NCBI GenBank assembly: GCA_964612665.1
Contig: CAZTCI010000001.1
Location: 380,896-444,895 of the forward strand
Source of the DNA: an uncultured Planctomycetales bacterium
Lineage (GTDB): Bacteria; Omnitrophota; Gorgyraeia; Zapsychrales; JAHFFX01
Direction of reading: 5' to 3'
Length of the DNA stretch: 64,000 nt
Below, piece by piece: positions 8,328-59,119 of the stretch; within the stretch, counting starts at the first letter, position 1, and every line of letters begins with the position of its first letter. Both the position numbers and the translations under genes were made by a program. The notes under the pieces were generated by a model. The model saw nothing but the letters and a program-made list of their open reading frames with translations. It made no database searches and had not been told where the DNA came from.

Positions 8328-8690
8328 TTATTTAGATTCGTAAACGTTAGAAAGATTTATATTCCCACCCTGAACTTCCGATAAAAAAACAATATTCGAT
8401 TGAATCGTGACTTTGGAATCAACCGCATTGACATGAATGAGCCCGGCGGAACTTAAAAGCGCCTGGTTAAGTACGGACCCGATTGATGACAAGGATTTTT
8501 CCAAAGGAATCTCTTTGGTTAAAGGATCCAAAACTGTTTTAACAATGTCGTCGGAAATTCCAGTGGCAACAATTTGATCCAGTTGCTGGTCGGTAAGTTC
8601 GGTGACTTCGGCGAAAATCGGGGACTGTATTAAGAGAAAAAGCAAGAAGGCAATAACACACAATATACTTTTTTGGCAGCTGACAACCAT
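8328..8690 (-). CDS. small secreted protein, minimal member of GG-leader-like/NAV-motif family
   Basis: 120 aa; Sec signal peptide then ELTDQQLDQIVATG motif; C-terminal HVNAVDSKVTIQSNIV resembles the NAVxSAVAxQTNV motif of the 54078 and 52919 proteins. Confidence 0.6.
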   Translation of the reverse strand: MVVSCQKSILCVIAFLLFLLIQSPIFAEVTELTDQQLDQIVATGISDDIVKTVLDPLTKEIPLEKSLSSIGSVLNQALLSSAGLIHVNAVDSKVTIQSNIVFLSEVQGGNINLSNVYESK

Positions 8691-9044: not shown

Positions 9045-10391
9045 TTAATTCTTTTGAGACTTCATTTCCAAAATCAGCAAAACGAAGAAAATTAAAGCGG
9101 AGAAAATTGTAAAAAAGGCGCTCCACTCAGATGTTTTCAAAAACATCGTGACCATCGTGGTCAACAGGCCAAGGGTAATATAGGTAAAAGGTTTTGTTAG
9201 AGGATGTGTTTTGAAGCGCGGACTGAATTCCGTTTCCGGACGCAAAAAGAAAAAAAACAAAGGAACCATTAACAGATGATAATGCAGCCAGACCAGCCCG
9301 CTCGCCAGAAAAAGCGTCAAACAGCCAAAACCATAAATCAAGAAAGTTTCTTTAAGCGCCTTTTCTTCTCTCATCGACTGTTGAGAATGAGACGCTTTCG
9401 CATTGGACTTTTCTAAGGAAAACCAAACCCACACAAATAAACCGATCATAATAGCGTAAATCAACAAAGAAATATTGAAGCCCATCCAATCAGCTAAAAT
9501 TTTGGCTAGACTGTAATTCCCCGTATGAATGGTGAACGGACAAGAATTAATATTCAAACTGACAAACCACCTTTTCCAAATATCAAGCTGAACAGTTTTA
9601 AAATAAGCAGCCGCTTCAATGAATGCGCAAGCCCAGCTTACCAAAACACCCAGCGCAAACGCTCCCATCTTCCTTATATCTTTATTGAGAAGCATTCCTA
9701 AAAACGCAAATAACAAAATGAAGCACGTGTTAGGTTTTAATATGACTGAAAACCCCAAAGCTAATCCGGCACCGAAAATTTGGCTGAACTTTTCTCCCCT
9801 CGCTAAAAGAAAAATAAAGAGTGTAACTAAGAATAATTGAATTTGATTAATGTTGGCAACCCGCATATCGGAAAGATAAGGAAAATACCAGCTGACAAAA
9901 ACCGAAAAAAGAAGAAAAAGTGTAAGGTAAGGAAATCTTAGCATCCGTCCCAAAATAAAAAACGCCGCTGTAAAGGCGATCAGCAAAATGACAAGAAACT
10001 TATCTTTATCGGAGAGAAAGTTTCCACTGATCAAATGGCTTAAGGTTGCGTAAAAAAAAGGCGTTGCCGTCATAATGACCTGTCCATCGTACATCTTTAA
10101 GACCGTATCAAAGACAAAACTTTCTTCCTCCGAAGGTGGATTACGCACAAATTCTTTTTTAGTTTCCTCGGCGAGCTTTTTTCGGTCATTATCCACGTAA
10201 AGCGTCTTAATATATCCCCCTTCAACCCCATGCGGCACCAGCCACCAGGTATAAAGATCAATCGCATGCTGATTTTGACCATATTGGTAGGCGCCGAAAA
10301 AACTGTTTAGAAATAAAATGAAAGCTGGGATGAGGACTGGATGGTGAAATTTATTGGGAATGGATACTGGAGTTGATTTTGAAGTTTTCAT
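9045..10391 (-). CDS. polytopic integral membrane protein, possible GT-C/DUF2029-type glycosyltransferase
   Basis: 448 aa, >=10 predicted TM helices, no soluble catalytic motif recognised. Confidence 0.35.
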   Translation of the reverse strand: MKTSKSTPVSIPNKFHHPVLIPAFILFLNSFFGAYQYGQNQHAIDLYTWWLVPHGVEGGYIKTLYVDNDRKKLAEETKKEFVRNPPSEEESFVFDTVLKMYDGQVIMTATPFFYATLSHLISGNFLSDKDKFLVILLIAFTAAFFILGRMLRFPYLTLFLLFSVFVSWYFPYLSDMRVANINQIQLFLVTLFIFLLARGEKFSQIFGAGLALGFSVILKPNTCFILLFAFLGMLLNKDIRKMGAFALGVLVSWACAFIEAAAYFKTVQLDIWKRWFVSLNINSCPFTIHTGNYSLAKILADWMGFNISLLIYAIMIGLFVWVWFSLEKSNAKASHSQQSMREEKALKETFLIYGFGCLTLFLASGLVWLHYHLLMVPLFFFFLRPETEFSPRFKTHPLTKPFTYITLGLLTTMVTMFLKTSEWSAFFTIFSALIFFVLLILEMKSQKN

Positions 10392-24484: not shown

Positions 24485-24700
24485 TCAATCCTCCGCCTTT
24501 AATCCTGCTTGCTTTAATACGCTATTTAATGTACCCGGAGCAATGTCATGCCCTGGATGTCCAGCAATGGTTACACGTCCAGATTTAAATCGATGCTTAT
24601 ACTGCCTATGGCTTCCTTTACTGGCCTTTTCTCTCCCAACGATAAGGTGTTCTATCATTCCCAGGGAGAAAAGGCCTAGTACTAGACTTTTGCAATGCAA
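24485..24700 (-). pseudogene. hicA: hicA toxin gene with its 5' region replaced or interrupted by an ~84-bp repeat element
   Basis: C-terminal 45 aa (SKGSHRQYKH...VTIAGHPGHDIAPGTLNSVLKQAGL) is classic HicA; first ~25 codons of the track ORF (TTG start) are encoded by the repeat element 24623-24705. Confidence 0.5.
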
Positions 24701-24705
24701 AAGTC
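24623..24705 (+). mobile_element. MITE/REP-like structured repeat, copy 1 (inverted copy at 51996-52079)
   Basis: 83 bp ~92% identical to the reverse complement of 51996-52079; contains 13-bp inverted repeat ggccttttctctc...gagagaaaaggcc plus palindromes tagtacta and acttttgcaatgcaaaagt. Confidence 0.7.
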
Positions 24706-24773
24706 AGTAATTCTGACTATATACCAACCATCGCGTTCAACCCGCCTGATAACATCTCTAATTTTTATGAATT

Positions 24774-46648: not shown

Positions 46649-49600
46649 TTACGGCGCCTGAATATACCCCTTCAATATTTTCAACAAAGAAGCATTAGGC
46701 AGATGATGTGTTGCCGTATCATATTTCGAAATCTTACGGTTTAAATCATTTAAAGAATCGTTTTGAAAGTCGGCGATGGATTCATCGTCTCCAAAGTGAT
46801 CATACATCCCCCATTCCGACGGATAATCATACATTTTGTATGACCACATCGACCAACTCCAGTTCTGATCATTAAATGTTTTAAGCATCAGATCCCAAAC
46901 GGCCTTGTCACCAAAGCCATTAAATTCACCGACCATGACGGGAACCTGATAAAGCGACTGCTTGGAATAACGTACCTTACCCGACCATTGATCCACCCCA
47001 TCTTGCCCGTCGATCAAATATTTCTGCTCTTCAGCCAAATTCAAAACGCCGATAATCTGGCCGTTTTGATCAAATTTGAATCCGTAATAATGGAATTGAT
47101 ACATAATATTCGTCCATTGAAAAACCGACGGGTTAGGCAACGTGTCCCAATCCTTGTTACTAGGAATTCCTTCCATGACAATAAGGTGTACGGTATCGTT
47201 GGCCCCGCCGCTGGAACCAGGAAGCCGAATCGTCCGATATAACCAATCATATAAACTCCACAGCGCCTGATAACCTTGGCTAATATTCGGATAATATAAC
47301 GGGTCGATGGCCCCGAATGGTTCATTAATTAAATCGTACCCCAACACGACGGTATTCTTTTTATAATGATTCGCAATCGCCCGCCAAAGCTCAGCCGTTC
47401 GTTGACGATAAACTTTATTCGCGGGATTAAAAAGCTGATGATAAAATCCTGCGGACGGACTTTTAGCGGATTGACGGCCCGTATGAAACGACGTGCTCTG
47501 CGATCCCGGCGCGCCGTGCAAATCTAAAAGCACATACATCCCGCGGTCCGCGCACATATCTAAAATCTTATCCACTGCCGAGAAATCATAAAGACCCGGA
47601 ACCCAGCTCCCCTTCGCATTTAAATCACGAATATTACGGTAATATAAAGGAAGCCGGACAAAATTTATTCCCATTCTGAAGAGATTGTTCAAGTCTTCTT
47701 CTTGGATGTAAGTGTTCTGATACGACGTGATCAAACTTTGCATCGAAACATCGCCAAATCTCTGGGACAAAATGCTGCGGATCGTCCAGTCATCCGGAAT
47801 CGACGCTGGCGCCCCGCTTCCTAAAAGCATCCAAGGTTCAAGCAGGAAATAATTTCCCAAGTTGACCCCGCGCAATTTAATGACCGGACCGTTGCCTTGG
47901 TTCTCTCGAAGATCGGTAGCGACGGCTTTAATAAAACCGTTAGGATTATACGCCAATGCCGGACTAAAGTTCGTGGCGTCGATAATCTGTTGATTGGCAT
48001 CAGTCTTAATTCCGCGTACGCGATATGATTTTCCTAACAGCGCCGAAATATTTTTAACCGGTCCCTTGTAAATTTGAACCCACGGCCCGTTTTTGGAATC
48101 GCCGCGCTGGACTTCATAAAGCGTTGTCTGCGGGATTGGAACCAATTGGATAACCCCCTGCTGTAATCTCGCATATTTGATAAGCGCAGGTTTGGGTTGA
48201 TATAAAACAACATCACTCCAATCTGACAGATACGGAACATGCCCATCGCTCGAAGTTGTTTCCCAACGCACACGCAGCGATGCCGGTTGAAGTCGGTTAT
48301 AGTTAAAAAAGTTTTGATGACCCGTATAAACCGTTGTCCATGGACCATCTGACCCAGCCGTACTTTCTTGCAATGTGTAGAACGCTGCCCCGGCGTAGTC
48401 ATTCCATTGAACAACTCCCGTCGGTAAATTGGCCTGATTAATAACCAGCGCAGGTCCTTTGGTCGCACGAATATCATCAAAATAATATGTCCCAGGCCAA
48501 TAGACTTGGAGCTGGATTTTATTTAAATCATCCAAGTTTAAATCCGCCGGCAGCGCGCTCAATGGAACCGATAACTGCGTCCACTGGCCATAATCGGCCG
48601 CCCGTTTTGTCCAGATCGTAAACGGTTCGACATTGTATTTGGGATTGTCCCAATCAAAGAATTGAACATTAACATTATTGGCAAGTCCGTTTTGGGCGAG
48701 CGAATAAACCCAGAACGTCAAGCGGTCATACGGTTTTGGATTTAAAGCTGTCGGATTTAAATCTACGTGCCAGAAATCTTGAAAAGAACAGGCCAATTTC
48801 GAATCGCAGCGGCGTTCTTGAGATTTCATTCCTGTCCCACCCCAAAAATCAAGCGTCTGGAGTTTCCAAGATTGCACGCCTTCATGCGCGAGCGTCGTTT
48901 CCAGATCAATATTACCGTTCCAAGCCCATCCGCAATCGCCTGGATTTCCCGTCGAGCAAGTCCATGGTTCAAACGTTTGATAAACGCGATCGGCGGACTC
49001 AATTTGAATATCATCCAGATAATAATCGCCTGGAAATTCGTTCACAAAATTAATTTTATCAACTGAAGTCCAATCGAAATTATTAGGAAGCTGCGTCAAC
49101 AAAATTGTGATTTGTGTCCATGTTCTAAATTTCGCTTTTTTCGTTGCGAAGACTTCAAAGCCTGAGAAAGCATCGCCTGTGTCTCTATAAATATTTTTAT
49201 CAAAGAATCTCACGCGGACTTCATTATCAGCGGCGTTAGAAGGATCCGCCCAGATCCAAAATGTCAGACGGTCGTTACGGTCGGGCTCAAAGTTGACGTG
49301 ATAAGTTTGAAATTGCGCCGGAATGGTTGTGCCGCCGAAAGAATTATTAGAGTGGACATGCCACGCTTGAACGCCGGCATGCACTTGAGTTGTTGAAAGT
49401 TCCGTGCTCGCGCCGTTTAATCCCCATCCATATTCGGGCGCGCCGCTTGGACTTCCCGGCGGGGGCGGGGTTCCGTTATTTGGTTCGAAATTTTGGTAGA
49501 CATGTCCTAAATTTCCTGCGTTATAAAGCGCGTTGATCTCATTAGACGATAAGACACGATTATAAACGCGTAACTCATCCAACAGCCCGCTAAAAATCTG

Positions 49601-50293
49601 CAGATCCCACGGCCGCTTGCCGATATAAAGATCCCAGCTTGTTTGCGGCGCAATCGTTCCAAAATTTTTCTGATTTCTTAACTGCCCGTCGATATAAACG
49701 CTCGCCCGGCCGTTTGTTCCATCATAAGTCACAACCAGGTGATGCCATTCGTTAAACGGCTGGTCATTGGTGCTGATAACATAGTGGAAGGCATCGCCTT
49801 TGGTATCAATTAAATTGGCGCCGGTTCCCAGATTTTCCCATTGATATCCAATTGTATTTGTCCAGAGATGAACGCCGGAAACTGTTCCGTCGGAATATTC
49901 TAAAAGAGGATTTTGCTGGAAACTAGCTGGTTGGTTTTTGCGGTTGTCGGAAGCGTTATACCAGGTGGCGAGGGTTAAGTTGTTTCCAAGGTTAAGGGAA
50001 GGACTCGCAGGAATTTTAATAAACCCATCCCCTCCGTCGAATTGATAAGCGCCGCCCACGCGTCCACTCGGTGTGTAAGAGACGTGTCCATTGATGATGC
50101 CAGTATTATTGTAACCGCTTAAATCTGTAACGGTCCCATTTGCATTCAGCGCATCGAATGAATAATATAAAACTAACCCATTTGTTGAATCAGCGTGGCA
50201 GGGCCGAACCCCGAATCCGCCTATTAAAAAAACCATACAAAACAAAAACTGCGCGAGTCTCACGATAATTCTTCCCATTCTCTGTATCTCCAT
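46649..50293 (-). CDS. secreted multidomain glycoside hydrolase: LamG-like domain, two CBM-like repeats, two Ig/FN3-like domains, C-terminal GH5
   Basis: 1214 aa; signal peptide; LamG motif region; duplicated ~150-aa domains (YQ.FEP..GW..NG...L.TT..H.GVQ.W...DRLTFW...PG.YY.DDI); GH5 features (VRLPL, LLDLHGAPGSQ, DLINEPFG acid/base, MVGEFNGFG nucleophile region). Confidence 0.8.
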   Translation of the reverse strand: MEIQRMGRIIVRLAQFLFCMVFLIGGFGVRPCHADSTNGLVLYYSFDALNANGTVTDLSGYNNTGIINGHVSYTPSGRVGGAYQFDGGDGFIKIPASPSLNLGNNLTLATWYNASDNRKNQPASFQQNPLLEYSDGTVSGVHLWTNTIGYQWENLGTGANLIDTKGDAFHYVISTNDQPFNEWHHLVVTYDGTNGRASVYIDGQLRNQKNFGTIAPQTSWDLYIGKRPWDLQIFSGLLDELRVYNRVLSSNEINALYNAGNLGHVYQNFEPNNGTPPPPGSPSGAPEYGWGLNGASTELSTTQVHAGVQAWHVHSNNSFGGTTIPAQFQTYHVNFEPDRNDRLTFWIWADPSNAADNEVRVRFFDKNIYRDTGDAFSGFEVFATKKAKFRTWTQITILLTQLPNNFDWTSVDKINFVNEFPGDYYLDDIQIESADRVYQTFEPWTCSTGNPGDCGWAWNGNIDLETTLAHEGVQSWKLQTLDFWGGTGMKSQERRCDSKLACSFQDFWHVDLNPTALNPKPYDRLTFWVYSLAQNGLANNVNVQFFDWDNPKYNVEPFTIWTKRAADYGQWTQLSVPLSALPADLNLDDLNKIQLQVYWPGTYYFDDIRATKGPALVINQANLPTGVVQWNDYAGAAFYTLQESTAGSDGPWTTVYTGHQNFFNYNRLQPASLRVRWETTSSDGHVPYLSDWSDVVLYQPKPALIKYARLQQGVIQLVPIPQTTLYEVQRGDSKNGPWVQIYKGPVKNISALLGKSYRVRGIKTDANQQIIDATNFSPALAYNPNGFIKAVATDLRENQGNGPVIKLRGVNLGNYFLLEPWMLLGSGAPASIPDDWTIRSILSQRFGDVSMQSLITSYQNTYIQEEDLNNLFRMGINFVRLPLYYRNIRDLNAKGSWVPGLYDFSAVDKILDMCADRGMYVLLDLHGAPGSQSTSFHTGRQSAKSPSAGFYHQLFNPANKVYRQRTAELWRAIANHYKKNTVVLGYDLINEPFGAIDPLYYPNISQGYQALWSLYDWLYRTIRLPGSSGGANDTVHLIVMEGIPSNKDWDTLPNPSVFQWTNIMYQFHYYGFKFDQNGQIIGVLNLAEEQKYLIDGQDGVDQWSGKVRYSKQSLYQVPVMVGEFNGFGDKAVWDLMLKTFNDQNWSWSMWSYKMYDYPSEWGMYDHFGDDESIADFQNDSLNDLNRKISKYDTATHHLPNASLLKILKGYIQAP

Positions 50294-50568
50294 ATTTTGA
50301 TAAATTCCAATTTGATTTTGGTTCTCACTTAAAATCCAAGCAATGAACTCTTAGCGAGAATTAAATAATGAAAGTAAGTGTACCCTCAGTTAAGAAAAAA
50401 GCAAGCTCTCTCACACAGACAAAGAAACTCTTTCTGGATGAATTCAATCTCAGGAAAGAATAGGGATGTTACGATTTAATTGATTTTATAAGTTGAGAAT
50501 CGTTGTTGTATATTAGGGAATAATAAATGCTATTGACCATTTATTATTTCAATAAGTGAGGAGAGAAA

Positions 50569-51969
50569 TTAAAACGTGATTGGGAAACGGACGTCCACCG
50601 TCATGTCTGGAGCATCGGTTGTAAGTCCCATCGAAACACCAAAGTCAAGCGAATGATATTCATCAATGGCCCAGTTAACACCAGTTTTAAAATTAGCAAC
50701 GTTCAGAAATGAACCGCCGACGGAATTATCATTACGAACCATCTTGGTCGTTATACTTTGATCAAATGAAAAAGTAATAGCAGTTTGATAACTCAACGCA
50801 ATCGCTGTTCCGACGCTATAACCAAGCGTGTCGCCGGGTTTAACATCACCAAAATTTTCAATATCTTGCCGGGCAAAATTATAGGTATAGCTTAAACTTC
50901 CAAAAATAACCGCCGGGTCGCTCGATTTAGCCGCAATAAGTGAACCGCGCAAACCCCAATGTCCGGTGCCTAACCCAATATCATGGTTATATGGTTCGCG
51001 TCCCGTCGGAGGTTTAACACTAAAGTTTGCGACCAAATCCGGCATTAAACCATGCTCCCAACCGATCTGCCGGCTTACACCAAATTCAATATCACCCAAC
51101 CCTTGTGTACCGCGTGTGGTTTCAGCGGTGGTTGACGTTAAAACAGTACGATCAAATTCACCGCGGTAAGGAATCTTTAACTCAGTTTGGAAATTATCAA
51201 AGAGCCCGTATTTTGCCGATAGTGTTTCAATAAAGACATCTCTCTTAATTTTTTGCACGTCAATATCTCCGACGACCAAAACAGGCAGAATACTGAAACC
51301 TTGGATGCTGATTGTGTTGGCCGATGAATGCGCATAAGTAAAACTCGGTTCAACCTGCATTTTCCCCTTGCCTAGCAGAATACTTCCTCTTTGCTGTAAG
51401 GTCCGTTCCAAGGATTCGGTCCGTTCAGTGGTACCTCCGGCCACATCCAAGTCCTTGTCATCCTTTTTAACGGCTTTACCGGGTCTCCTGTCTTTAACTG
51501 GCGACTTCGACATGCCAGGACCCACTTGTAGTCCGGGCTCGACATCGCCACTGGCAGCATATTGATCCAAATCCTGATCAAGCAACTGTCTTCGCTGCTT
51601 TTCTTTGTCGAGAATTTCTAAAACAATTTGATGGACGGCGGTTTGTAAATCTTCGTTATTAGTTTTTGATAAGAAATCAGACGGGGGGGATTGCGGTTGG
51701 GCAATTTTTTGCACAGATGGTATTTCTGCAATTTTTGTTGAAGCATCGGAACCGTGTTTGATTTGGGCCTTCACTAACTGAGGAATTTCTTGTAAAACTT
51801 CGTTGCGGACTTCTTCTTTTAATTCTTGTTTAATTTGGCTTCTCAATCTTTCAGTGAGCTCTTTATAATTTTTTTCCTGCGCTTCTTTGTTCCAGCGCAC
51901 CAAAAGAACAGCCGTTAAAATGCCAATACTTACAGTAAGCAATAAACTCTTTAATTGAGGATTTTTCAT
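50569..51969 (-). CDS. outer-membrane beta-barrel protein with N-terminal coiled coil (FapF-like secretion pore candidate)
   Basis: 466 aa; N-terminal signal/anchor, heptad coiled coil (res 30-75), Pro/Gln/Asp-rich linker, ~270-aa C-terminal alternating-hydrophobic beta-strands ending ...VRFPITF (C-terminal Phe). Confidence 0.6.
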   Translation of the reverse strand: MKNPQLKSLLLTVSIGILTAVLLVRWNKEAQEKNYKELTERLRSQIKQELKEEVRNEVLQEIPQLVKAQIKHGSDASTKIAEIPSVQKIAQPQSPPSDFLSKTNNEDLQTAVHQIVLEILDKEKQRRQLLDQDLDQYAASGDVEPGLQVGPGMSKSPVKDRRPGKAVKKDDKDLDVAGGTTERTESLERTLQQRGSILLGKGKMQVEPSFTYAHSSANTISIQGFSILPVLVVGDIDVQKIKRDVFIETLSAKYGLFDNFQTELKIPYRGEFDRTVLTSTTAETTRGTQGLGDIEFGVSRQIGWEHGLMPDLVANFSVKPPTGREPYNHDIGLGTGHWGLRGSLIAAKSSDPAVIFGSLSYTYNFARQDIENFGDVKPGDTLGYSVGTAIALSYQTAITFSFDQSITTKMVRNDNSVGGSFLNVANFKTGVNWAIDEYHSLDFGVSMGLTTDAPDMTVDVRFPITF

Positions 51970-51995
51970 AGTTTTTAGACTTATAGCCTCCTACT

Positions 51996-52079
51996 GACTT
52001 TTGCATTGCAAAAGTCTAGTACTAGGCCTTTTCTCTCGGAGAATGATAGAACAACCTTATCTTTGGGAGAGAAAAGGCC
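51996..52079 (-). mobile_element. MITE/REP-like structured repeat, copy 2 (inverted relative to 24623-24705)
   Basis: 84 bp; reverse complement ~92% identical to 24623-24705; intergenic between OM barrel gene start and C39 peptidase gene stop. Confidence 0.7.
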
Positions 52080-52088
52080 AGTAATCAA

Positions 52089-52799
52089 TTAAAATTCACC
52101 CGTATGAATCGTCGTACTGATTACATCGGGAGTCATTATGCTACGCATTAATTTATAATCAACTGAAACAAAATCTTTTTCTGCAATCTTTAAAGCATAA
52201 TCACTATTTTTGTCTTCATGAGGTTTTTCAACCAATAATCCGATGCCATCCAGCCATAAATCTTGAAACTTATTAATTTTCATCGAGACATTACCGACGG
52301 CAGGGTCAGCGATAAAAACACGGTCAGCCATCACAGCTTTTACAATAACAAAATGGCGGTAATTCCTAAATTTAATGGGAACTAAAACCGGTTTATGCAG
52401 ATGGCGCAAAAAATCAATGTCCATCTTATAACCTGTCACATTATAACCTTTTTGTTTTGCATAAGTTTTTAAATCAAATAAAGAGAATCCCCGGCGTTCT
52501 TTAATTTTTGCTAACGGCACAACTTGCAGAAGTGAATTAATAATCTCACCTTCCGAAACTGGATCATTGAGATAATAATTTAACAGCGTTGAAAGTCCAG
52601 CAGCACCACAACTAAAATCCAGACTTTGCGTAACGATGTTTGTGCGTCGGATGTCGCGCAAGGGTTTGATGTCTTTGTTAATCCGGATTCCGAATGAAGA
52701 AAAACTAATAGCCCAACTAGAAGATGGAATTAAAGGAATTAGAAAAAGACTGAAAAGCAGGAAGAAATTTTTATGGGCCTTTGTGAAGCTACTATACAT
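52089..52799 (-). CDS. standalone periplasmic papain-like C39-family cysteine peptidase (FapD-like)
   Basis: 236 aa; signal peptide; catalytic Cys context DFSCGAAGLSTLLNYY, downstream His/Asp region typical of peptidase C39/C39-like. Confidence 0.7.
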   Translation of the reverse strand: MYSSFTKAHKNFFLLFSLFLIPLIPSSSWAISFSSFGIRINKDIKPLRDIRRTNIVTQSLDFSCGAAGLSTLLNYYLNDPVSEGEIINSLLQVVPLAKIKERRGFSLFDLKTYAKQKGYNVTGYKMDIDFLRHLHKPVLVPIKFRNYRHFVIVKAVMADRVFIADPAVGNVSMKINKFQDLWLDGIGLLVEKPHEDKNSDYALKIAEKDFVSVDYKLMRSIMTPDVISTTIHTGEF

Positions 52800-52838
52800 T
52801 ATTAAGGGCTTTTATAAAATCTTTTTTAGAAATTTTGA

Positions 52839-52876
52839 CCCCTGAGCTATTGAAGTTGGAATAAATAGCTCAGGGG
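52839..52876 (-). terminator. intra-operon hairpin (attenuator/partial terminator) between secreted subunit gene and C39 peptidase gene
   Basis: cccctgagctat-N14-atagctcagggg, 12-bp perfect stem. Confidence 0.45.
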
Positions 52877-52918
52877 TTCTATAGTTTAGCGAAAAAATAC
52901 AAGCACTCTAAATTGCAA

Positions 52919-53971
52919 TTAAGGCTGAATTTGGAAGATAGAATAGTTACTCAGTTTAAGATCGTTTGAATTGTTTACATTACCAACTGTTGAATTCATC
53001 AATACCGTTAAATTGATCTGCACAGGTACAATGCTTCCAGCAGCATTGATATTAACAAAGGCGCTCAATTGTTGCTGCGCCGTATCGGTAACATTGACTG
53101 AGTTGATGCCGCCGCCCGTTGTTGAGAACGGTATCGGAATAACGTTATTGCCGCCACTATTAGCGACAGCAACTTTAAAATTACCTCCATGATTTGCAGC
53201 TAACACATCCAAAACATATGGCGAAGTTATGGCTGCCGGTGAAGTCGGCGTTGTCGGAGCGGCTGTCTGAGTGGGTACTGTTACATTAATGTTATTAGAT
53301 GGCGCCACTTGATTTGAAGTCGCTCCCGCTGCGTCGGCAGGTAAGGCAGAATTGGCCGCGACAACATTGGCTTGTGACGCTTGAGATGAAGCTGCATTTT
53401 GAGCAATTGATCCTGCTCCTCCTAATGGAGCACCAGAAGCTAATGATGAATCGGGAATATTTGTTGTTTCAGGTTTCATAATCCCAACTGTCTCGACGGG
53501 AGTAATAGGCACTTCAGGGCCTACGGTTACCGAAGGTGTCGCATGTGCAGAAAGTGGATTTTCTACATCTGTCAAGCTACTAGCTAAACTAGATGAGGGC
53601 AGTGAAGATCCAGCTGATGATGCTGATGACGCGTTAGATGGTGCTACTATATTTGTTGTATCGGCTCCGGCTGGGGATTTTGGAGACGTCGGCGTAGATA
53701 AGGACACTTTGACATTGGGATTATTAGTGTTCACTAAAAATGGATTGTTTTGAGTACCGAGTGTTACAGGACCTTTGGTAACACTATCCGCACTAGTACC
53801 CACCGAGCCAAGATAACTATCAAAATTAAAATTTAATCCTCCCGCGTGAATCTGGTCTAATTCATAATCGGAAAGAATAATAGCTTGACCCGCAAAAGCA
53901 TAAGAAATTTGAGATAACATAAGAACTGCGGTAAATCCTAAAGAAAATTTCTTTGACGCCATTTTTCTCAC
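52919..53971 (-). CDS. secreted Ala/Ser/Thr/Pro/Asn-rich protein with post-signal double-glycine-like motif (candidate fibre/amyloid subunit)
   Basis: 350 aa; Sec signal peptide (..ISYAFA|GQ), then ILSDYELDQIHAGG|LNF; C-terminal FVNINAAGSIVPVQINLTV motif related to paralogs. Confidence 0.6.
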   Translation of the reverse strand: MRKMASKKFSLGFTAVLMLSQISYAFAGQAIILSDYELDQIHAGGLNFNFDSYLGSVGTSADSVTKGPVTLGTQNNPFLVNTNNPNVKVSLSTPTSPKSPAGADTTNIVAPSNASSASSAGSSLPSSSLASSLTDVENPLSAHATPSVTVGPEVPITPVETVGIMKPETTNIPDSSLASGAPLGGAGSIAQNAASSQASQANVVAANSALPADAAGATSNQVAPSNNINVTVPTQTAAPTTPTSPAAITSPYVLDVLAANHGGNFKVAVANSGGNNVIPIPFSTTGGGINSVNVTDTAQQQLSAFVNINAAGSIVPVQINLTVLMNSTVGNVNNSNDLKLSNYSIFQIQP

Positions 53972-54028
53972 CTCTTCTCCGGCATTAGCTGTAATAGATT
54001 TTTACATTACTTTTTCAACTGGTACTAC

Positions 54029-54058
54029 AGTGGTGGGAGGAAAAATCCTCCCACCACT
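54029..54058 (-). terminator. intra-operon perfect hairpin between large repeat-protein gene and next subunit gene
   Basis: agtggtgggagg-aaaaat-cctcccaccact (12-bp stem). Confidence 0.5.
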
Positions 54059-54077
54059 TGAAGCTCAACGGCTTAGA

Positions 54078-56639
54078 TTACAAACCGCCGTTTACCACTG
54101 TGGCCACGTTGGTCTGGCTAACATTGCCGCTGATACTGCTTGAATTGGCAACGTTAGTTTGGATCGCAACAGCTGAACCAACAGCGTTTAAGTTGCTAAC
54201 TGCTTGGATCGTCGCCTGAGATCCACCAGTGACGTAAAGCTTGTTCTTCACAGCTTTCGTCTTGGTTTCTTTCAGACTGATATCAGCGGTCTCGGTATTA
54301 GTTTTAGTCTTTGAGACTTCCTTGATCTCGCTTTGATCCACAGTTTCTTTGTTTGAGTGAGATGAAGCACTTGCATCAGAACTTGAGGCGTCTTTTGAAG
54401 CTGCAGCTGACGCACTCTCGGCTGAAGAAGATGACGCTGAAGAATCATGAGATGAAGCTGATTGAGCAGCAGATGAACTTGCCGCTGTGCTTGAGCTGCT
54501 TGAGTCACCAGAAGCTGATGCTGAAGCAGTTGCATCCTTAGAAGCCTTCAACGTTGCATTCAATGTTTTATCATCTGCCGACGCTGAATTGCTGGCTGAC
54601 GAGCTGCCTTGTGCGGCTTTACTCGAAGAACCTGCGCTAGAATCGGTAGATGCTTTGTCGCTATCTGAAGCAGCTGAACTGCTGGCGGCTTCTTTATCTT
54701 TTGAAGCAGCTAAATGCGCATCCAAAGTAGCACTATCGGATGATTTAGCTGAATCAGATGATGAAGCGGCACTTGAAGAAGCTGCATTAGCTTGTTCAGC
54801 ACTGCTATCTGAAGCTTTAGCATTGCCTGAAGCTGATGAATCTTTAGCTGCGCTTAAGCTGGCATCAACATTGGCGTTGTGTGACGATGACGCCGCTGAT
54901 GAACCAGAAGCACCGCTTGCAGAAGATGCGCTGGCTTGTTCAGCACTGCTATCTGAAGCTTTACCATTGCTTGAAGCTGATGCATCTTTGGAAGCGCTTA
55001 AGTTTGCATTGAGGTTGGCATTATCAGATGATGAAGCTCCTGACGATGCTGAACTTTCATTGCTGCTACCACTACTAGCTGAAGCTTGGTTGCTTCCGGT
55101 TGCGGCAGCTGAACTGCTGGCAGCATCGCTGTTTGTTGAAGCAGCGTTTTTATCTTTAGTTGCGGTATTTGTTGTTGCTGTACCTTCTCCCGTGGATGAT
55201 CCACTGCTTGTTGATGAATCCTGGGTAGAGGCACCACCACCTGATGAGCTCTGATTCGTGCTCGTACCCGTCGCGGCGCTACCAGTTCCCTCTAATGAAG
55301 TGGAACTTGAGGTCTTTGACGAATTTGATTGAGCCGTATCATTGCTTGTGGAAGCAGCGGCATCTGAGCTGCTGGACGTGCTACCACTTGAACTTGAAGC
55401 GGCATCAGCTGATTTGCTGGCTGAAGCATCGCCAGAAGCAGCAGATGAATTCTTTGAAGCTGTCAAACTAGCATCCAGTTTACCTGAATCATTAGCTTGA
55501 GCATTTGATTCTGAAGCCGCATCATGTGATGACGCAGCGCTTGAAGTCGAAGAATCGCTTGATGCACTTTGTGCACCGCTATTCTTGGCTGATGACTTAC
55601 CAGCAGATAAGCTAGCATCCAAGCTGGCTTTATCACTTGATTGTGAAGCTGATTCTGAACCAGCATCATGTGATGAAGCGGCGCTTGAATTTGAAGAATC
55701 GCTGGCTTGAGCAGCAGAAGCGCTTTCGCCTGATGCGTTCTTCGTAGCAGACAAGCTGCCATCGACAGCCGCTTTATCTGAAGAAGAATCACCTGAGCCT
55801 GAAGCCGCATCATGTGATGAAGCGGTACCGGCTGCGGCTGATTCAGCTGATTCAGATGATGAGCTTTCAGCAGCAGAAGCACTGCTTTGTGAAGAAACGC
55901 TTGAAGTAGCACTTAAACTAGCATCAATGGCAGCATGATCACCACTTTCTGATCCCGCAGCTGAAGAAGCAGCGTCAGCAGATGATTGTGAAGCTTGATC
56001 AGAAGCTGAAGCTGAATCACCAGATTTATCACTGCTGGTAGCCGCTTGGCTAGCAGAAGCTGAGAAGCTAACCGCTTCTTTTGAAGCTTCGGCTGATGAG
56101 CTTGCCGCTGAATCAGTCGTTTCAGTGGTAGTCACATTCTTATCAGTGTTTGTAATCGTTTTATTTGACGACGATGAATCGCTGTAATGAACTGTCAGAT
56201 CTTTGCTATCAACAACGTTTTTGTTGGTGACGTTAGCTTCATTGCTCTGCGTTAAATCAACAGCGCCTTCAGTCGCGTTCGAAACGTTGGTCTGGACGGC
56301 AACAGCGCTGTCAACGGCATTCGCGTTGCTAACGGCTTTCAGTTCAGCCTGCGCTTGACTGTCGATGACCATTTTATTTTTCTTGGTAGCATCAGCTTTA
56401 TAGCCACCTTGGCTATCTGCAGCAGCATCGCCGCCATCACTATTTTTTGCTAAAACCCACTCGCCGGCGGCAATTTCATCCATTTGCTTATCGGAAAGAG
56501 CAACACCTTCAGCAGCAGAAGCTGACGAGATGCGAAAAGCAAGCGGATAAACCGCAAACATGAGCGTTAATAATAAGATACTGATTTTTCTCGAATTCAT
56601 GACTATTACCTCTATTTGTTGAATGATGGTTAGTAACAC
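54078..56639 (-). CDS. very large secreted Ser/Ala/Asp-rich tandem-repeat protein with GG-leader-like N-terminal motif and duplicated NAVxSAVAxQTNV end motifs (candidate fibre/adhesin)
   Basis: 853 aa; signal peptide; ALSDKQMDEIAAGEW; >=8 repeats carrying [LV][DN]A[SHT]L[STK]A[SGAT]K at ~40-aa period; motif AELKAVSNANAVDSAVAVQTNV near N-term and ATIQAVSNLNAVGSAVAIQTNV near C-term. Confidence 0.65.
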   Translation of the reverse strand: MLLTIIQQIEVIVMNSRKISILLLTLMFAVYPLAFRISSASAAEGVALSDKQMDEIAAGEWVLAKNSDGGDAAADSQGGYKADATKKNKMVIDSQAQAELKAVSNANAVDSAVAVQTNVSNATEGAVDLTQSNEANVTNKNVVDSKDLTVHYSDSSSSNKTITNTDKNVTTTETTDSAASSSAEASKEAVSFSASASQAATSSDKSGDSASASDQASQSSADAASSAAGSESGDHAAIDASLSATSSVSSQSSASAAESSSSESAESAAAGTASSHDAASGSGDSSSDKAAVDGSLSATKNASGESASAAQASDSSNSSAASSHDAGSESASQSSDKASLDASLSAGKSSAKNSGAQSASSDSSTSSAASSHDAASESNAQANDSGKLDASLTASKNSSAASGDASASKSADAASSSSGSTSSSSDAAASTSNDTAQSNSSKTSSSTSLEGTGSAATGTSTNQSSSGGGASTQDSSTSSGSSTGEGTATTNTATKDKNAASTNSDAASSSAAATGSNQASASSGSSNESSASSGASSSDNANLNANLSASKDASASSNGKASDSSAEQASASSASGASGSSAASSSHNANVDASLSAAKDSSASGNAKASDSSAEQANAASSSAASSSDSAKSSDSATLDAHLAASKDKEAASSSAASDSDKASTDSSAGSSSKAAQGSSSASNSASADDKTLNATLKASKDATASASASGDSSSSSTAASSSAAQSASSHDSSASSSSAESASAAASKDASSSDASASSHSNKETVDQSEIKEVSKTKTNTETADISLKETKTKAVKNKLYVTGGSQATIQAVSNLNAVGSAVAIQTNVANSSSISGNVSQTNVATVVNGGL

Positions 56640-56801
56640 TATTCACAACAATTGGGCGCTGAAAGATTCAGCATTAACCCGTTCTACTCAATATTACTTT
56701 GTTATTTTTTGTTATTGTGGTGGCGTTTATTACACCGCAGTCATATTCAAGCCACCTTCTTATCTCACCCCCCTTCTTGTTCTTTAGAAATATTCAAAAT
56801 A

Positions 56802-56845
56802 AAAACCCCCTACGGTTTTTAAATCTATTCACTGACGGGGGTTTT
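56802..56845 (-). terminator. rho-independent terminator of araC-family gene
   Basis: aaaaccccc-N27-gggggtttt with T-run on minus strand (tttttattttg). Confidence 0.6.
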
Positions 56846-57030
56846 ATATTTATAAGTTGTGAATTTCTTGACTGACATAACTGTGGCGCCTTCATTTGAT
56901 GAATTTGATAACCTACTATAAGACATACAGATTTTTTTGACAATGGACTAATTTGTTAAAGAATAGTAAATTTTTGCGGTTAAGCCAATTATGTTTCTGT
57001 TTTAATTTAAATCTCAAAACTAAAAGCCTC

Positions 57031-57867
57031 TTATTCCCATCTTTTTTTTGTTTTCACTGCGACTTTTCTTTTTTCCGGCTTACTGCGGTATTCTGCAGGA
57101 GACACTCCCTGAAACTTCTTGAAAACTTTACTAAAATAACCTGGATCCTCAAATCCACAAGAATACGAGACCTGGCTGACCGAAAGACTCTTATCCCGAA
57201 GCAATCGAGAGGCTACCGTAATTCTGCGATTATTAAGAAAATTAGAAAACGTCGTCTTAAGTTCTTTGGTAAAAAGATGACTCAAATAATAGTAGCTTAC
57301 ATTATTCTGTTCAGAGACTGAAGCTAAGGAAAGCTCAGGAATGTGGTAATTACTATTAAGGAACTGAATGACTTTAAAGAGAATCTTTTTTTGGTGAGTG
57401 ACTTCCTTGCCTTTAAAATCATCTAAAAATTTAAAATCATGACTGACGAGCCGGTTAATTGTTTCTTCCAGAAATTGGCACATCGATTCCAGCTGGCTTT
57501 TATTCAATCGAAGCTGGGTATTCTCGCCGCTGTAAAGGTAACCGATGACGCTTTCTTGAAAAACAATGGGAACCAAAATTTTGATAAATCCTTCTGGGCA
57601 GGCAAAAGTCACTGGCTTGAGCGTTCGGGTGGCTTGCTCTATATAGAGAGGAAGAATGGTTAGGTTATTGGCGGTTTTATAGGCACTTCTAATATTACGG
57701 TGCAAAATACGTTCTTCAGCAATCTCATTTTTCAAAAAAAATGGGATCGGATTTCCCTGTTCATCTAGCAGGTCAAGATCGATCCCATTAAACTTGCGTA
57801 AAAATTCATGAACAATAGATAATGCTTTTGAATCCTTAAGATACTCCATAACAATTGCGGCTGACAT
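57031..57867 (-). CDS. AraC/XylS-family transcriptional regulator
   Basis: 278 aa; C-terminal dual HTH (RITVASRLLRDKSLSVSQVSYSCGFEDPGYFSKVFKKFQGVSPAEYR). Confidence 0.85.
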   Translation of the reverse strand: MSAAIVMEYLKDSKALSIVHEFLRKFNGIDLDLLDEQGNPIPFFLKNEIAEERILHRNIRSAYKTANNLTILPLYIEQATRTLKPVTFACPEGFIKILVPIVFQESVIGYLYSGENTQLRLNKSQLESMCQFLEETINRLVSHDFKFLDDFKGKEVTHQKKILFKVIQFLNSNYHIPELSLASVSEQNNVSYYYLSHLFTKELKTTFSNFLNNRRITVASRLLRDKSLSVSQVSYSCGFEDPGYFSKVFKKFQGVSPAEYRSKPEKRKVAVKTKKRWE

Positions 57868-58134
57868 TTCTCGCTCCTTTGGCTAGAAAAAATTTTGTCC
57901 GTTTACAATTTAGATACACGTATTCTTAAAGATTGATTCACCATTTTTGAAATAACATAAATGTGTTGCGCTTGTTAGTGAGGCTATAAAATACATGATA
58001 TGAATTTTATGTCAACAGGACACAATTGGACAAACCAGGACAGCTTAAAGCACTGAAATTACATTAGATATTTTTCTAATAAAAAACTTAAAAACTCGAC
58101 GGGATTCTTGAAAAATAAAAAAGCTAGAGCATTT

Positions 58135-59049
58135 TTAGGAAAGTCTCATCTTAAATTTGATGATGCTCTCTCGGATGGAAGTTGATTTTTGATTGGATTG
58201 AATTGTGGCGGCAGACTGGGGCGTTTCGGGCTGGTATTTTTTCGATTGAAGAATTTTTTCTAAATTTGAGGTAAGCGATTCCAAAGGTTTTTCGTAGCCA
58301 AAACTAAACAACGTGTTAATAATGCGCAGGAATTCTAAAATGTATTTAATGGCGTTTTCTAAATTGACGACAACCCCGATATCGGAAGGTAACGGTGAGA
58401 AGATAATATGTTTATCGTCCTGAACCATATATTCATTGTCACCCAAAATACTTGGATGCGAAAAACGCGAACACAGTCTAAAAGTGATTTCGTATTCCTC
58501 TAATAAATTTTTGTCCACTTGTTTGGCCATGTCACGAATCGCTTTTCCAGACCAGGTAACCAGCGCCTGATCGGAGATGATATGAAATTCTTTTTTAAAT
58601 TCATCGACCTTGTCTAAAATCATTTTTTTTCTTTTAAGAAAATTATTCTTTTCATCCGGTGAAGCCGATTCTATTTGTTTTTCCTGCTCGGCCAAATGGC
58701 GTTTAAAAACCACCCACTTATAAGCGACGAAACGTTTAGCCAGATTATTGGCAGATTGTTTGTCGTGGATGATGTATTTTGTGGTGACGAGATTTTCAAA
58801 AAGGGATCTTAACAGGGTTGAAACATCTTGGCCGTAGCCTTGTTCACACAAAATAAGAATTGAGGCGTATGTTTTGATCGAGCGGCTCACGACGAAAAGA
58901 AAGATGCGTTGATAGGCAGGCAAGTCAAAAAGCCGTAACTCGCGTTTGTTAAATTCTTCTAAAAGCGAACGGCCGCAATCATCAACGCTGTGGGCGAGAT
59001 CGAAAAGTTTTTTGTTATTTTGTTGGAGGGATTGGGAGAAGTTGGTCAT
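58135..59049 (-). CDS. hypothetical protein (likely start MTNFSQS)
   Basis: ~305 aa; no recognised domain; track ORF over-extended through GC hairpin. Confidence 0.4.
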   Translation of the reverse strand: MTNFSQSLQQNNKKLFDLAHSVDDCGRSLLEEFNKRELRLFDLPAYQRIFLFVVSRSIKTYASILILCEQGYGQDVSTLLRSLFENLVTTKYIIHDKQSANNLAKRFVAYKWVVFKRHLAEQEKQIESASPDEKNNFLKRKKMILDKVDEFKKEFHIISDQALVTWSGKAIRDMAKQVDKNLLEEYEITFRLCSRFSHPSILGDNEYMVQDDKHIIFSPLPSDIGVVVNLENAIKYILEFLRIINTLFSFGYEKPLESLTSNLEKILQSKKYQPETPQSAATIQSNQKSTSIRESIIKFKMRLS

Positions 59050-59069
59050 AATTTTGATTAATAGATGCG

Positions 59070-59119
59070 TGGGCGTTGGGCGGCCGGCAACGACGCAGCG
59101 CCGCCGGCCGCCCAACGCC
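59070..59119 (-). terminator. 17-bp GC hairpin downstream of pgi
   Basis: gggcgttgggcggccgg-N16-ccggccgcccaacgccc. Confidence 0.55.

Follow-up and report, generated by a model that had tools for sequence, protein, structure and literature searches.

Organization of the locus

We examined a 64,000-nucleotide stretch of DNA (positions 380,896 to 444,895 of contig CAZTCI010000001.1, assembly GCA_964612665.1), hereafter the window, from an uncultured bacterium of the phylum Candidatus Omnitrophota. The subject of this work is a locus in the window that encodes an AraC-family regulator, two secreted proteins (A and B), a C39 cysteine peptidase (D) and a barrel protein (F). On the evidence of its genes, it probably specifies a two-step system, related to Fap, that secretes and assembles extracellular repeat proteins of a distinct family. 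An earlier note on this DNA had described four co-directional genes downstream of the regulator, each product with a Sec signal or an N-terminal anchor. All the open reading frames (ORFs) were found at their coordinates on the minus strand, giving five co-directional genes in the order regulator, A, B, D, F, with predicted signal peptides on A, B and D and a hydrophobic N-terminal segment on F.

57031..57867, minus strand: AraC-family regulator with a PocR-type sensor domain (Pfam matches)
56797..56845, minus strand: hairpin AAAACCCCC...GGGGGUUUU resembling a terminator, with a U-run after it, in the gap between the regulator gene and A (sequence reading and folding)
54078..56600, minus strand: protein A, 840 residues, secreted, Ser/Ala-rich
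52919..53962, minus strand: protein B, 347 residues, secreted
52089..52799, minus strand: protein D, standalone C39 cysteine peptidase, 236 residues
50569..51969, minus strand: protein F, FapF-type outer-membrane exporter, 466 residues

The start of A is most likely ATG 56600 rather than GTG 56639 (853-residue ORF), because the ATG is preceded by AGAGG, which resembles a ribosome-binding site, and opens a classical signal peptide (MNSRK...SASA). For B, ATG 53962 may be the start instead of GTG 53971.

The regulator carries a C-terminal dual helix-turn-helix and an N-terminal PocR domain, as AraC/XylS proteins with PocR do, and all of its Pfam matches were above the cut-offs (HTH_18, 1.2e-21, 77.2 bits; HTH_AraC, 3.7e-16, 59.3 bits; PocR, 1.1e-5, 25.7 bits). 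In 11 other Omnitrophota locus records, two pairs of which are mutual duplicates, a regulator homologue was found linked with the cassette. It lay upstream in most Omnitrophota records and 3' of F in three (L018, L020, and L022), with the linkage kept. The separate terminator that had been proposed for the regulator corresponds to the hairpin and U-run at 56797-56845, which the consensus scanner left uncalled because of its long loop. An Rfam scan of 50000-58500 returned sub-threshold chance matches only.

The peptidase D and the barrel F

Protein D matched Pfam Peptidase_C39 (E-value 1.2e-21), and a signal peptide was read from the sequence at residues 1-30. Its best NCBIfam match was FilB (1.4e-40, 139.4 bits against a cut-off of 475), and FapD was also matched (2.1e-31, 109 bits against 330), both scores being far below the equivalog cut-offs. 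Weak matches to the peptidase domains of bacteriocin ATP-binding cassette (ABC) transporters were also obtained. When D was aligned with the PCAT1 peptidase domain (4RY2), Gln58, Cys64, His149 and Asp165 matched the PCAT1 motifs DCGAAC, HFV and ADP; from established knowledge of PCAT1 we take these to be the catalytic positions of D. All four residues, including Cys64 (52608-52610), are intact in D and invariant in 123/123 homologues, Pseudomonas FapD among them. D is thus predicted to be an active-type C39 peptidase with a signal peptide, and the earlier description of it as FapD-type is backed by the hidden Markov model (HMM) matches (Peptidase_C39 and FapD) and by the PDB sequence search.

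Protein F matched NCBIfam FapF at 8e-43 (146.8 bits against an equivalog cut-off of 700), NCBIfam FilC at 3.3e-15 (56.3 bits against 630) and Pfam Phenol_MetA_deg (PF13557) at 5e-11 (43.6 bits against a gathering cut-off of 22). A phmmer comparison with the FapF crystal construct (PDB 5O65) gave an E-value of 3.7e-30 over residues 190-466 of F and covered the entire construct. The AlphaFold2 model of F, built with 55 homologues, had a mean predicted local distance difference test score (pLDDT) of 81.9. In it, a long N-terminal helix that takes in the hydrophobic segment (residues 4-81) is followed by another helix (105-127) and a disordered linker (128-181). A short helix then occupies the place of the FapF plug (185-193), and a beta-barrel (204-461) comes last, with the C-terminus ...PITF ending in Phe. 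In a Foldseek search of the PDB with this model, the top 18 hits were FapF chains, with E-values to 4e-24, target-normalised template modelling (TM) scores of 0.83-0.86 and about 27% identity, and the next fold match was the COG4313 channel 4RL8 (1.7e-14). By score above the gathering threshold and by matching barrel fold, F also falls within the PF13557/COG4313-type channels. It has the predicted barrel, plug helix, linker and N-terminal coiled coil of a FapF-type transporter, and both sequence and modelled fold identify it as a FapF-type barrel, as had been suggested from the sequence.

In the F of the window and in several homologues the N-terminal hydrophobic segment runs straight into the long predicted helix, and an AxA cleavage site is not obvious. 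We considered that F might be an inner-membrane-anchored protein and set this aside because several homologues have ordinary cleavage sites.

A leader directly after the signal peptide of A and B

In A, a predicted signal peptide (residues 1-29) is followed by the segment LSDKQMDEIAAG at residues 35-46 (56463-56498). In B, the signal peptide (residues 1-24) is followed by LSDYELDQIHAG(G) at residues 30-41 (53840-53875). Both segments begin 5 residues past the predicted AxA cleavage sites. In every clade locus inspected, a segment with the consensus L-[STD]-D-x-[EQ]-[LM]-D-x-[IV]-x-A-G starts 0-6 residues past the predicted signal cleavage site, always directly after an AxA-type site. We collected this leader from 39 distinct ORFs of four phyla. 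The conservation was L in 36/39, D in 37/39, L/M in 39/39, the second D in 39/39, I/V in 39/39, A in 38/39 and G in 30/39, and the position between the second D and [IV] was occupied by [QER].

The classical double-glycine leader is LSxxELxxIxGG, cut after GG, GA or GS. The cargo leader shares its register as read from the alignment, the -12, -7 and -4 positions being hydrophobic, -2 being Ala and -1 being Gly (in 30 of the 39). The double-glycine-type motif that the earlier note had placed after the Sec signal is real, strongly conserved and strictly linked to one D/F clade across four phyla. The best-conserved dipeptide at the putative cleavage site is however A-G and not G-G.

Among the fetched loci, the leader was restricted to plus-strand ORFs directly upstream of the C39 gene, and the same scan found none in plus-strand ORFs of the Pseudomonas, Variovorax/Comamonadaceae or Burkholderiaceae loci. 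The leader is more than a chance match because the gene order recurs in at least 12 Omnitrophota loci and the leader in 39 ORFs of four phyla, with none in the outside clades. The leader-type peptides GQAIILSDYELDQIHAGGLNF and AEGVALSDKQMDEIAAGEWVL are candidate substrates for D.

Composition of the cargo and the shared motif

Protein A is 30% Ser and 21% Ala and has no Cys. Its Ser/Ala-rich core contains about 8 degenerate repeats of about 48-54 residues each around an LDASLSASKD-like core, and has the character of a low-complexity acidic spacer whose composition is conserved and whose sequence is not. A-type homologues are 750-1055 residues long in most Omnitrophota loci. In B, a variable Ser/Pro/Ala-rich linker leads to a conserved C-terminal motif domain (52922-53122). 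In the AlphaFold2 model of B (pLDDT 40), only a short helix over the leader was ordered; this fits an unfolded secretion substrate and says nothing on fibrils or the assembled state.

A and B have in common an N/Q/A/V-rich motif, exemplified by AQQQLSAFVNINAAGSIVPVQINLTVLMNSTVGN in B and AQAELKAVSNANAVDSAVAVQTNV in A, where the copies lie near the N-terminus (56226-56354) and the C-terminus (54081-54221). An HMM of the B C-terminal domain matched every B-type protein of the clade (1e-12 to 1e-26) and matched the A-types twice, near each terminus. This copy-number rule, two in A-types and one in B-types, held in the Omnitrophota, Acidobacteriota and gammaproteobacterial loci. No match of the HMM was found in other clades, the Pseudomonas loci included. 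A profile search with the B family gave 155 clusters (50% identity) at an E-value of 1e-3 or better among 1.84 billion representatives. One of these, P0312, is a metagenomic protein of 1283 residues in which the same signal peptide and leader precede an array of about 20 tandem A-type motifs (AQxxLxALSNxNxVDSAxAVQSNIT, period about 55-65 residues), which indicates that the cargo motif is a genuine repeat unit.

Profile-profile comparison of the cargo motif with FapB, FapC and FapE showed no similarity (P 0.13-0.71; hhalign against FapB and FapC, P 0.13-0.16), and the N/Q-rich imperfect repeats of FapB and FapC (GN-x-GN-x2-AG-x2-NQQ-x-N) do not occur in A or B. The earlier note had been right that A and B carry no FapB/FapC repeats, but they are not repeat-less, having the N/Q/A/V-rich motif of their own. 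A and B (at E-values up to 0.1) and their relatives gave no Pfam or NCBIfam match, the sole exception in the cargo family searches being a sub-threshold match to DUF6160 on the leader region of one Acidobacteriota B protein; a literature search on DUF6160 gave nothing useful. Judged by these searches, the cargo is a new secreted repeat-protein family outside the Pfam and NCBIfam models.

We also searched the ORFs of the window with the B C-terminal HMM and found one further gene (E-value 1e-4).

8328..8690, minus strand: orphan cargo-like gene, 120 residues, with a signal peptide, the leader-like LTDQQLDQIVATG and one motif copy LIHVNAVDSKVTIQSNIVF

This gene lies about 42 kb from the locus between unrelated neighbours, a secreted S8 subtilase (5614-8004, plus strand) and a 448-residue polytopic membrane protein (9045-10391, minus strand). 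From its leader-like segment and motif, its product is probably a third substrate of D and F.

Distribution and phylogeny

The order regulator, A-type (750-1055 residues), B-type (150-430 residues), C39, barrel was found in L001, L003, L004, L016-L018, L021, L022 and L027. In two further Omnitrophota loci (L019 and L020) the A-type genes were shorter or split. The cassette is conserved across the Candidatus Omnitrophota, its gene order recurring in at least 12 loci of the phylum. Cargo, C39 and barrel, the core of the cassette, were also present in Acidobacteriota (L005-L010, where L005, a farmland-soil metagenome contig, groups with the Acidobacteriota), in a metagenome-assembled genome (MAG) of Syntrophobacteraceae (L011), in two Pseudomonadales MAGs (L012 and L013) and in the cultured Ectothiorhodospira haloalkaliphila ATCC 51935 (L014). 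Leader-motif cargo was thus linked to the C39 and barrel genes in four phyla.

A genome scan with an alignment of six F sequences, taking one genome per species, gave 250 F relatives, and the groups were described from the best 80. These 80 also included Variovorax and other Comamonadaceae, Trinickia, Paraburkholderia and genuine Pseudomonas fap loci. In a neighbour-joining tree of F, the Omnitrophota, Acidobacteriota, Syntrophobacteraceae, Pseudomonadales MAG and Ectothiorhodospira sequences formed one clade, separate from the Pseudomonas, Burkholderiaceae and Comamonadaceae barrel clades. The leader and the cargo motif are co-inherited with this one D/F clade.

The pairing of D and F is not new outside Pseudomonas: colocalised fapD-fapF homologues were reported in 2018 in five additional phyla, with the cargo not described (PMC6173800).

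In some loci of other groups (L031 from a gammaproteobacterial MAG, and L044 and L065 from Trinickia and Paraburkholderia), related post-signal motifs were seen in proteins encoded between the C39 and barrel genes (ASDGELAEVRGGF; VGDDVLARQTGK), the first being the E-position protein of the gammaproteobacterial MAG. The neighbouring cargo in loci of this type has different N/Q/G-rich repeats, for example SGIVQINQTAGAGNATANSF.

A leader-like site in the linker of F

The linker of F contains DLDVAGG at residues 173-179 (51433-51453; peptide KDLDVAGGTTERTE). Of 65 Omnitrophota F homologues, 44 had an [AG]G dipeptide 5-7 residues ahead of the plug helix S-I-E-R-T-L, in the context [LY]-[ED]-[VTI]-[TA]-[AG]-G-E, against a background for [AG]G of 0.022 per position. 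A simple pattern search missed the site in about one fifth of the Omnitrophota homologues, and it was not evident in one Acidobacteriota F inspected, although the Acidobacteriota loci keep the cargo leader. This leader-like segment is a candidate self-processing or gating site, echoing what has been proposed for Pseudomonas FapF.

Comparison with Fap and other secretion systems

The closest characterised machinery is the Fap system of Pseudomonas. Like Fap, the locus encodes a standalone periplasmic C39 peptidase with Cys and His (in D, with the predicted catalytic Cys in place) and a barrel with plug helix, disordered linker and N-terminal coiled coil, and it combines cargo from the same operon that is predicted to be unfolded and Sec-dependent with a putative GG site in the transporter linker (PMC5557850). 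A further likeness is that FapE has a leader-like motif of the same register directly past its signal peptide.

However, the locus in the window has no homologues of FapA, FapB, FapC or FapE. No ORF or match was found for FapA, no ORF for FapE lies between D and F, where there is only a repeat element, and hhalign of B against FapE aligned the leader alone. The cargo genes are upstream of D with no gene between D and F, every cargo protein has the leader and not just one minor component, and an AraC/PocR regulator is linked. F sits in a clade apart from that of Pseudomonas FapF, with which it shares about 26-28% identity, and both D and F score far below the NCBIfam equivalog cut-offs. In its predicted workings the locus is like Fap. 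It is nevertheless not a Fap system, because FapA, FapB, FapC and FapE are lacking, D and F are under the equivalog thresholds and the cargo belongs to another family, one without annotation.

We also inspected FapE itself. In 42/42 Pseudomonas loci in which it was found (L039-L085; for example L039:7172-7948), the sequence ...A|xxFKPIELKDQELAxLRGR(Y/F)VMPG lies directly past the signal peptide, and hhalign matched this segment, and nothing else, to the B leader in the same register (P 7e-4 to 0.015). The corresponding peptide QSFKPIELKDQELATLRGRFVMPG is a candidate substrate of Pseudomonas FapD. We found no mention of this motif in the literature searched.

In Pseudomonas, FapC secretion depends on FapD activity (Cys38), the FapF linker has been proposed to be cut at GG or GA motifs, and no canonical C39 recognition sequence was found in the Fap proteins (PMC5557850). 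FapE is N-terminally processed (PMC5557850; reviewed in PMC12822426), and a review of December 2025 goes no further than saying that FapD is "thought to process" FapE at its N-terminus and FapF in its periplasmic region (PMC12822426).

The Fil system of Acinetobacter, a putative pilus system, is a poorly characterised C39-plus-barrel surface-structure system, of which FilC and FilF have been detected in A. baumannii biofilms (PMC8792954). FilB is the best NCBIfam match of D, and FilC matches F. In contrast to Fil proteins, D and F score far below the FilB and FilC cut-offs, A and B match no NCBIfam model, and D and F do not qualify as members of FilB and FilC.

The leader and D also resemble the PCAT/AMS exporters (e.g. 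PCAT1 and LahT), which share the leader register LSxxELxxIx(G/A)G with hydrophobic -12, -7 and -4 and have a peptidase of the same family with aligned Q/C/H/D. Here, however, the leader follows a Sec signal and is not at the extreme N-terminus, position -2 is Ala, D is predicted to be soluble and periplasmic rather than a cytoplasmic domain within an ABC exporter, and passage across the outer membrane would be via a FapF-type barrel. The cassette has no ABC transporter, and it lacks the combination of an extreme N-terminal leader and an ABC-fused C39 domain.

No protease step is known for curli, and no sequence or fold relation to any Csg component was seen. What the curli system (CsgA/CsgB, CsgG/E/F) has in common with the proposed working of the locus is its logic: repeat subunits exported unfolded by Sec, an outer-membrane channel of their own, and a major subunit with a minor nucleator or anchor (PMC12822426 and textbook knowledge).

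Hairpins within the operon

Three elements capable of forming hairpins lie between the genes of the operon.

54029..54058, minus strand: perfect 13-bp G/C-rich hairpin with a 4-nt loop, about 20 nt past the A stop
52838..52877, minus strand: perfect 14-bp hairpin with a 12-nt loop, between B and D
51992..52084, no strand assigned: 93-nt palindromic repeat element (two hairpins) inserted between D and F

Directly after the A stop, a strong perfect G/C-rich hairpin was found in 12/12 Omnitrophota loci (z -4.7 to -9.6 against shuffled sequences), with outer stem sequences that differ between loci. Per-locus folds were used for this comparison, as a covariation test on a MAFFT alignment is not meaningful here (the alignment is not structure-aware and the stem lengths differ). 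The conservation supports a role of the predicted hairpin in differential expression, with A as the abundant product. The hairpin between B and D had no counterpart in L001, L003 and L004, where the B-D gaps are 31-59 nt and hold no strong hairpin. The hairpins between D and F belong to the 93-nt element, of which a second copy was found by blastn at 24618-24709 in opposite orientation (94.6% identity over 93 nt). This element is a small palindromic intergenic repeat, REP-like (repetitive extragenic palindromic) or MITE-like (miniature inverted-repeat transposable element), and the D-F spacing is 1-13 nt in three relatives examined. Of the stoichiometric attenuation that the earlier note had suggested for the intra-operon hairpins, both of which are indeed perfect, the part concerning the post-A hairpin is retained, whereas the B-D hairpin has no support from the three relatives and the D-F hairpins come from the repeat element.

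Genes flanking the locus

The regulator gene is adjoined by a DUF5677 gene (58135-59115, minus strand). In 10 other Omnitrophota locus records the cassette is likewise flanked by a gene for a homologue of its product (44-60% identity); the other phyla yielded none. The DUF5677 gene could have a functional link to the cassette, or this could be mere conserved synteny. Directly downstream of F is a gene for a 1214-residue secreted protein with LamG-like and GH5 cellulase domains (46649-50293, minus strand). It was missing from three related loci examined, and we rejected it as probably not part of the system.

Proposed mechanism and alternatives

The regulator would turn on the operon A-B-D-F. 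The stem-loop after A would make the A message more abundant or stabler than those of the distal genes, in keeping with A as the major structural product. Sec would carry A, B, D and F across the inner membrane, where trimming by signal peptidase would leave A and B with a new amphipathic N-terminus, the leader of about 17 residues (L-S-D-x-E/Q-L/M-D-x-I/V-x-A-G). D would bind this leader as the PCAT peptidase domains do and cut at or near A-G, and would probably also cut the leader-like ...LDV(A/T)(A/G)G in the F linker, just ahead of the plug helix. Cutting would license the passage of unfolded cargo through the FapF-type barrel. Outside the cell, the N/Q/A/V-rich motifs would join into a polymer in which bivalent A extends the chain and monovalent B starts, caps or anchors it, and the acidic Ser/Ala-rich core of A would be exposed as a hydrophilic spacer. 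That D processes the cargo, that F exports it and that a fibre or amyloid-like polymer forms are steps that we infer from the genes.

Several observations weigh against this scheme. The residue after the invariant Ala is not always Gly, being Gln or Lys in some B proteins of Omnitrophota and Ala in Acidobacteriaceae, which makes the scissile bond uncertain. The N-terminus of F in the window has no clear AxA site, although some homologues have one. The U-tract is lacking from the post-A hairpin of the window and from most of its counterparts, so that its effect could be either partial termination or 3'-end stabilisation. Polymer formation is deduced from motif copy number and composition only, the model of the B monomer is unstructured, and the cargo motif has no detectable similarity to the repeats of FapB, FapC or FapE. 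In Pseudomonas, no FapE peptides were reported for the first ~70 residues (PMC5557850); this gap reaches past the leader-like motif, so the motif could be a docking helix, with the cut made elsewhere.

An alternative, which we consider unlikely but the strongest of those weighed, is that D cuts only the F linker and so gates the pore, the LSD...AG segment of A and B being an uncleaved targeting or chaperone-binding signal that is read by the F coiled coil or by D acting as a chaperone. The conserved [AG]G just ahead of the plug helix of F, the variable -1 residue of the leader in some B proteins, the proposed cleavage of FapF by FapD and the existence of non-cutting, substrate-binding C39-like domains in type 1 secretion systems (PMC5557850) are all consistent with it. 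However, Q/C/H/D are invariant in D, and the leader keeps the entire double-glycine register and not just a hydrophobic patch. Moreover, the linker site is the less constant of the two, being missed by the simple pattern in about one fifth of the Omnitrophota homologues and not evident in the one Acidobacteriota F inspected, from a group whose loci keep the leader.

In a second alternative, A and B could be exported as monomeric surface proteins tethered to the cell (adhesins, a hydrophilic brush or a capsule-like coat, for example by retention of the C-terminal motif in or on F) that form no fibre or amyloid-like polymer. A low-complexity acidic Ser/Ala-rich core conserved in composition is what stalks and brushes typically have, the model of B is disordered, and the motif bears no likeness to known amyloid repeats. 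The rule of two copies in A and one in B across phyla and the ~20 tandem copies in P0312 nevertheless fit a self-associating repeat, and Fap, the nearest machinery of known function, exports fibre subunits (PMC5557850). We regard a monomeric coat as somewhat less probable again than cleavage restricted to F. Export of bacteriocin-like or signalling peptides, with the ~17-residue leader or the cargo as the bioactive product, is highly improbable: the leader does resemble those of bacteriocins and competence peptides and D weakly matches bacteriocin ABC-transporter peptidase domains, but the cassette has no ABC transporter, immunity gene or modification enzyme, the cargo is low-complexity, Cys-free and 120-1055 residues long, and the predicted route is Sec plus an outer-membrane barrel.

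We therefore return to the Fap-related two-step system as the probable reading of the locus. A broader proposal can be put more tentatively, and we would hold it at somewhat less than even odds: that FapD-type C39 peptidases recognise a GG-type leader exposed by removal of the Sec signal, and that this tandem signal marks a widespread two-step route through FapF-type barrels, from Omnitrophota and Acidobacteriota to Pseudomonas FapE, which here delivers undescribed self-associating, fibre-building repeat proteins. The leader principle may, from the sequences at hand, extend to further cargo families.

Significance

The substrate of FapD and its recognition sequence have been in question since 2017 (PMC5557850; PMC12822426). 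The clade described here is an unusually legible version of such a system, with a near-canonical leader on every cargo protein, a similar site in the Omnitrophota linker and the same register in FapE. These features turn the FapD substrate question into simple cleavage and secretion assays with defined motifs, and one host, Ectothiorhodospira haloalkaliphila ATCC 51935, is available in culture. A tandem signal of this type, if portable, could serve the engineered secretion of unfolded proteins across the outer membrane. For the Omnitrophota, a largely uncultured phylum, the cassette identifies a conserved and regulated locus for a putative surface structure. For the wider family, the leader is a candidate recognition signal for periplasmic C39 peptidases and suggests what this peptidase class cuts.

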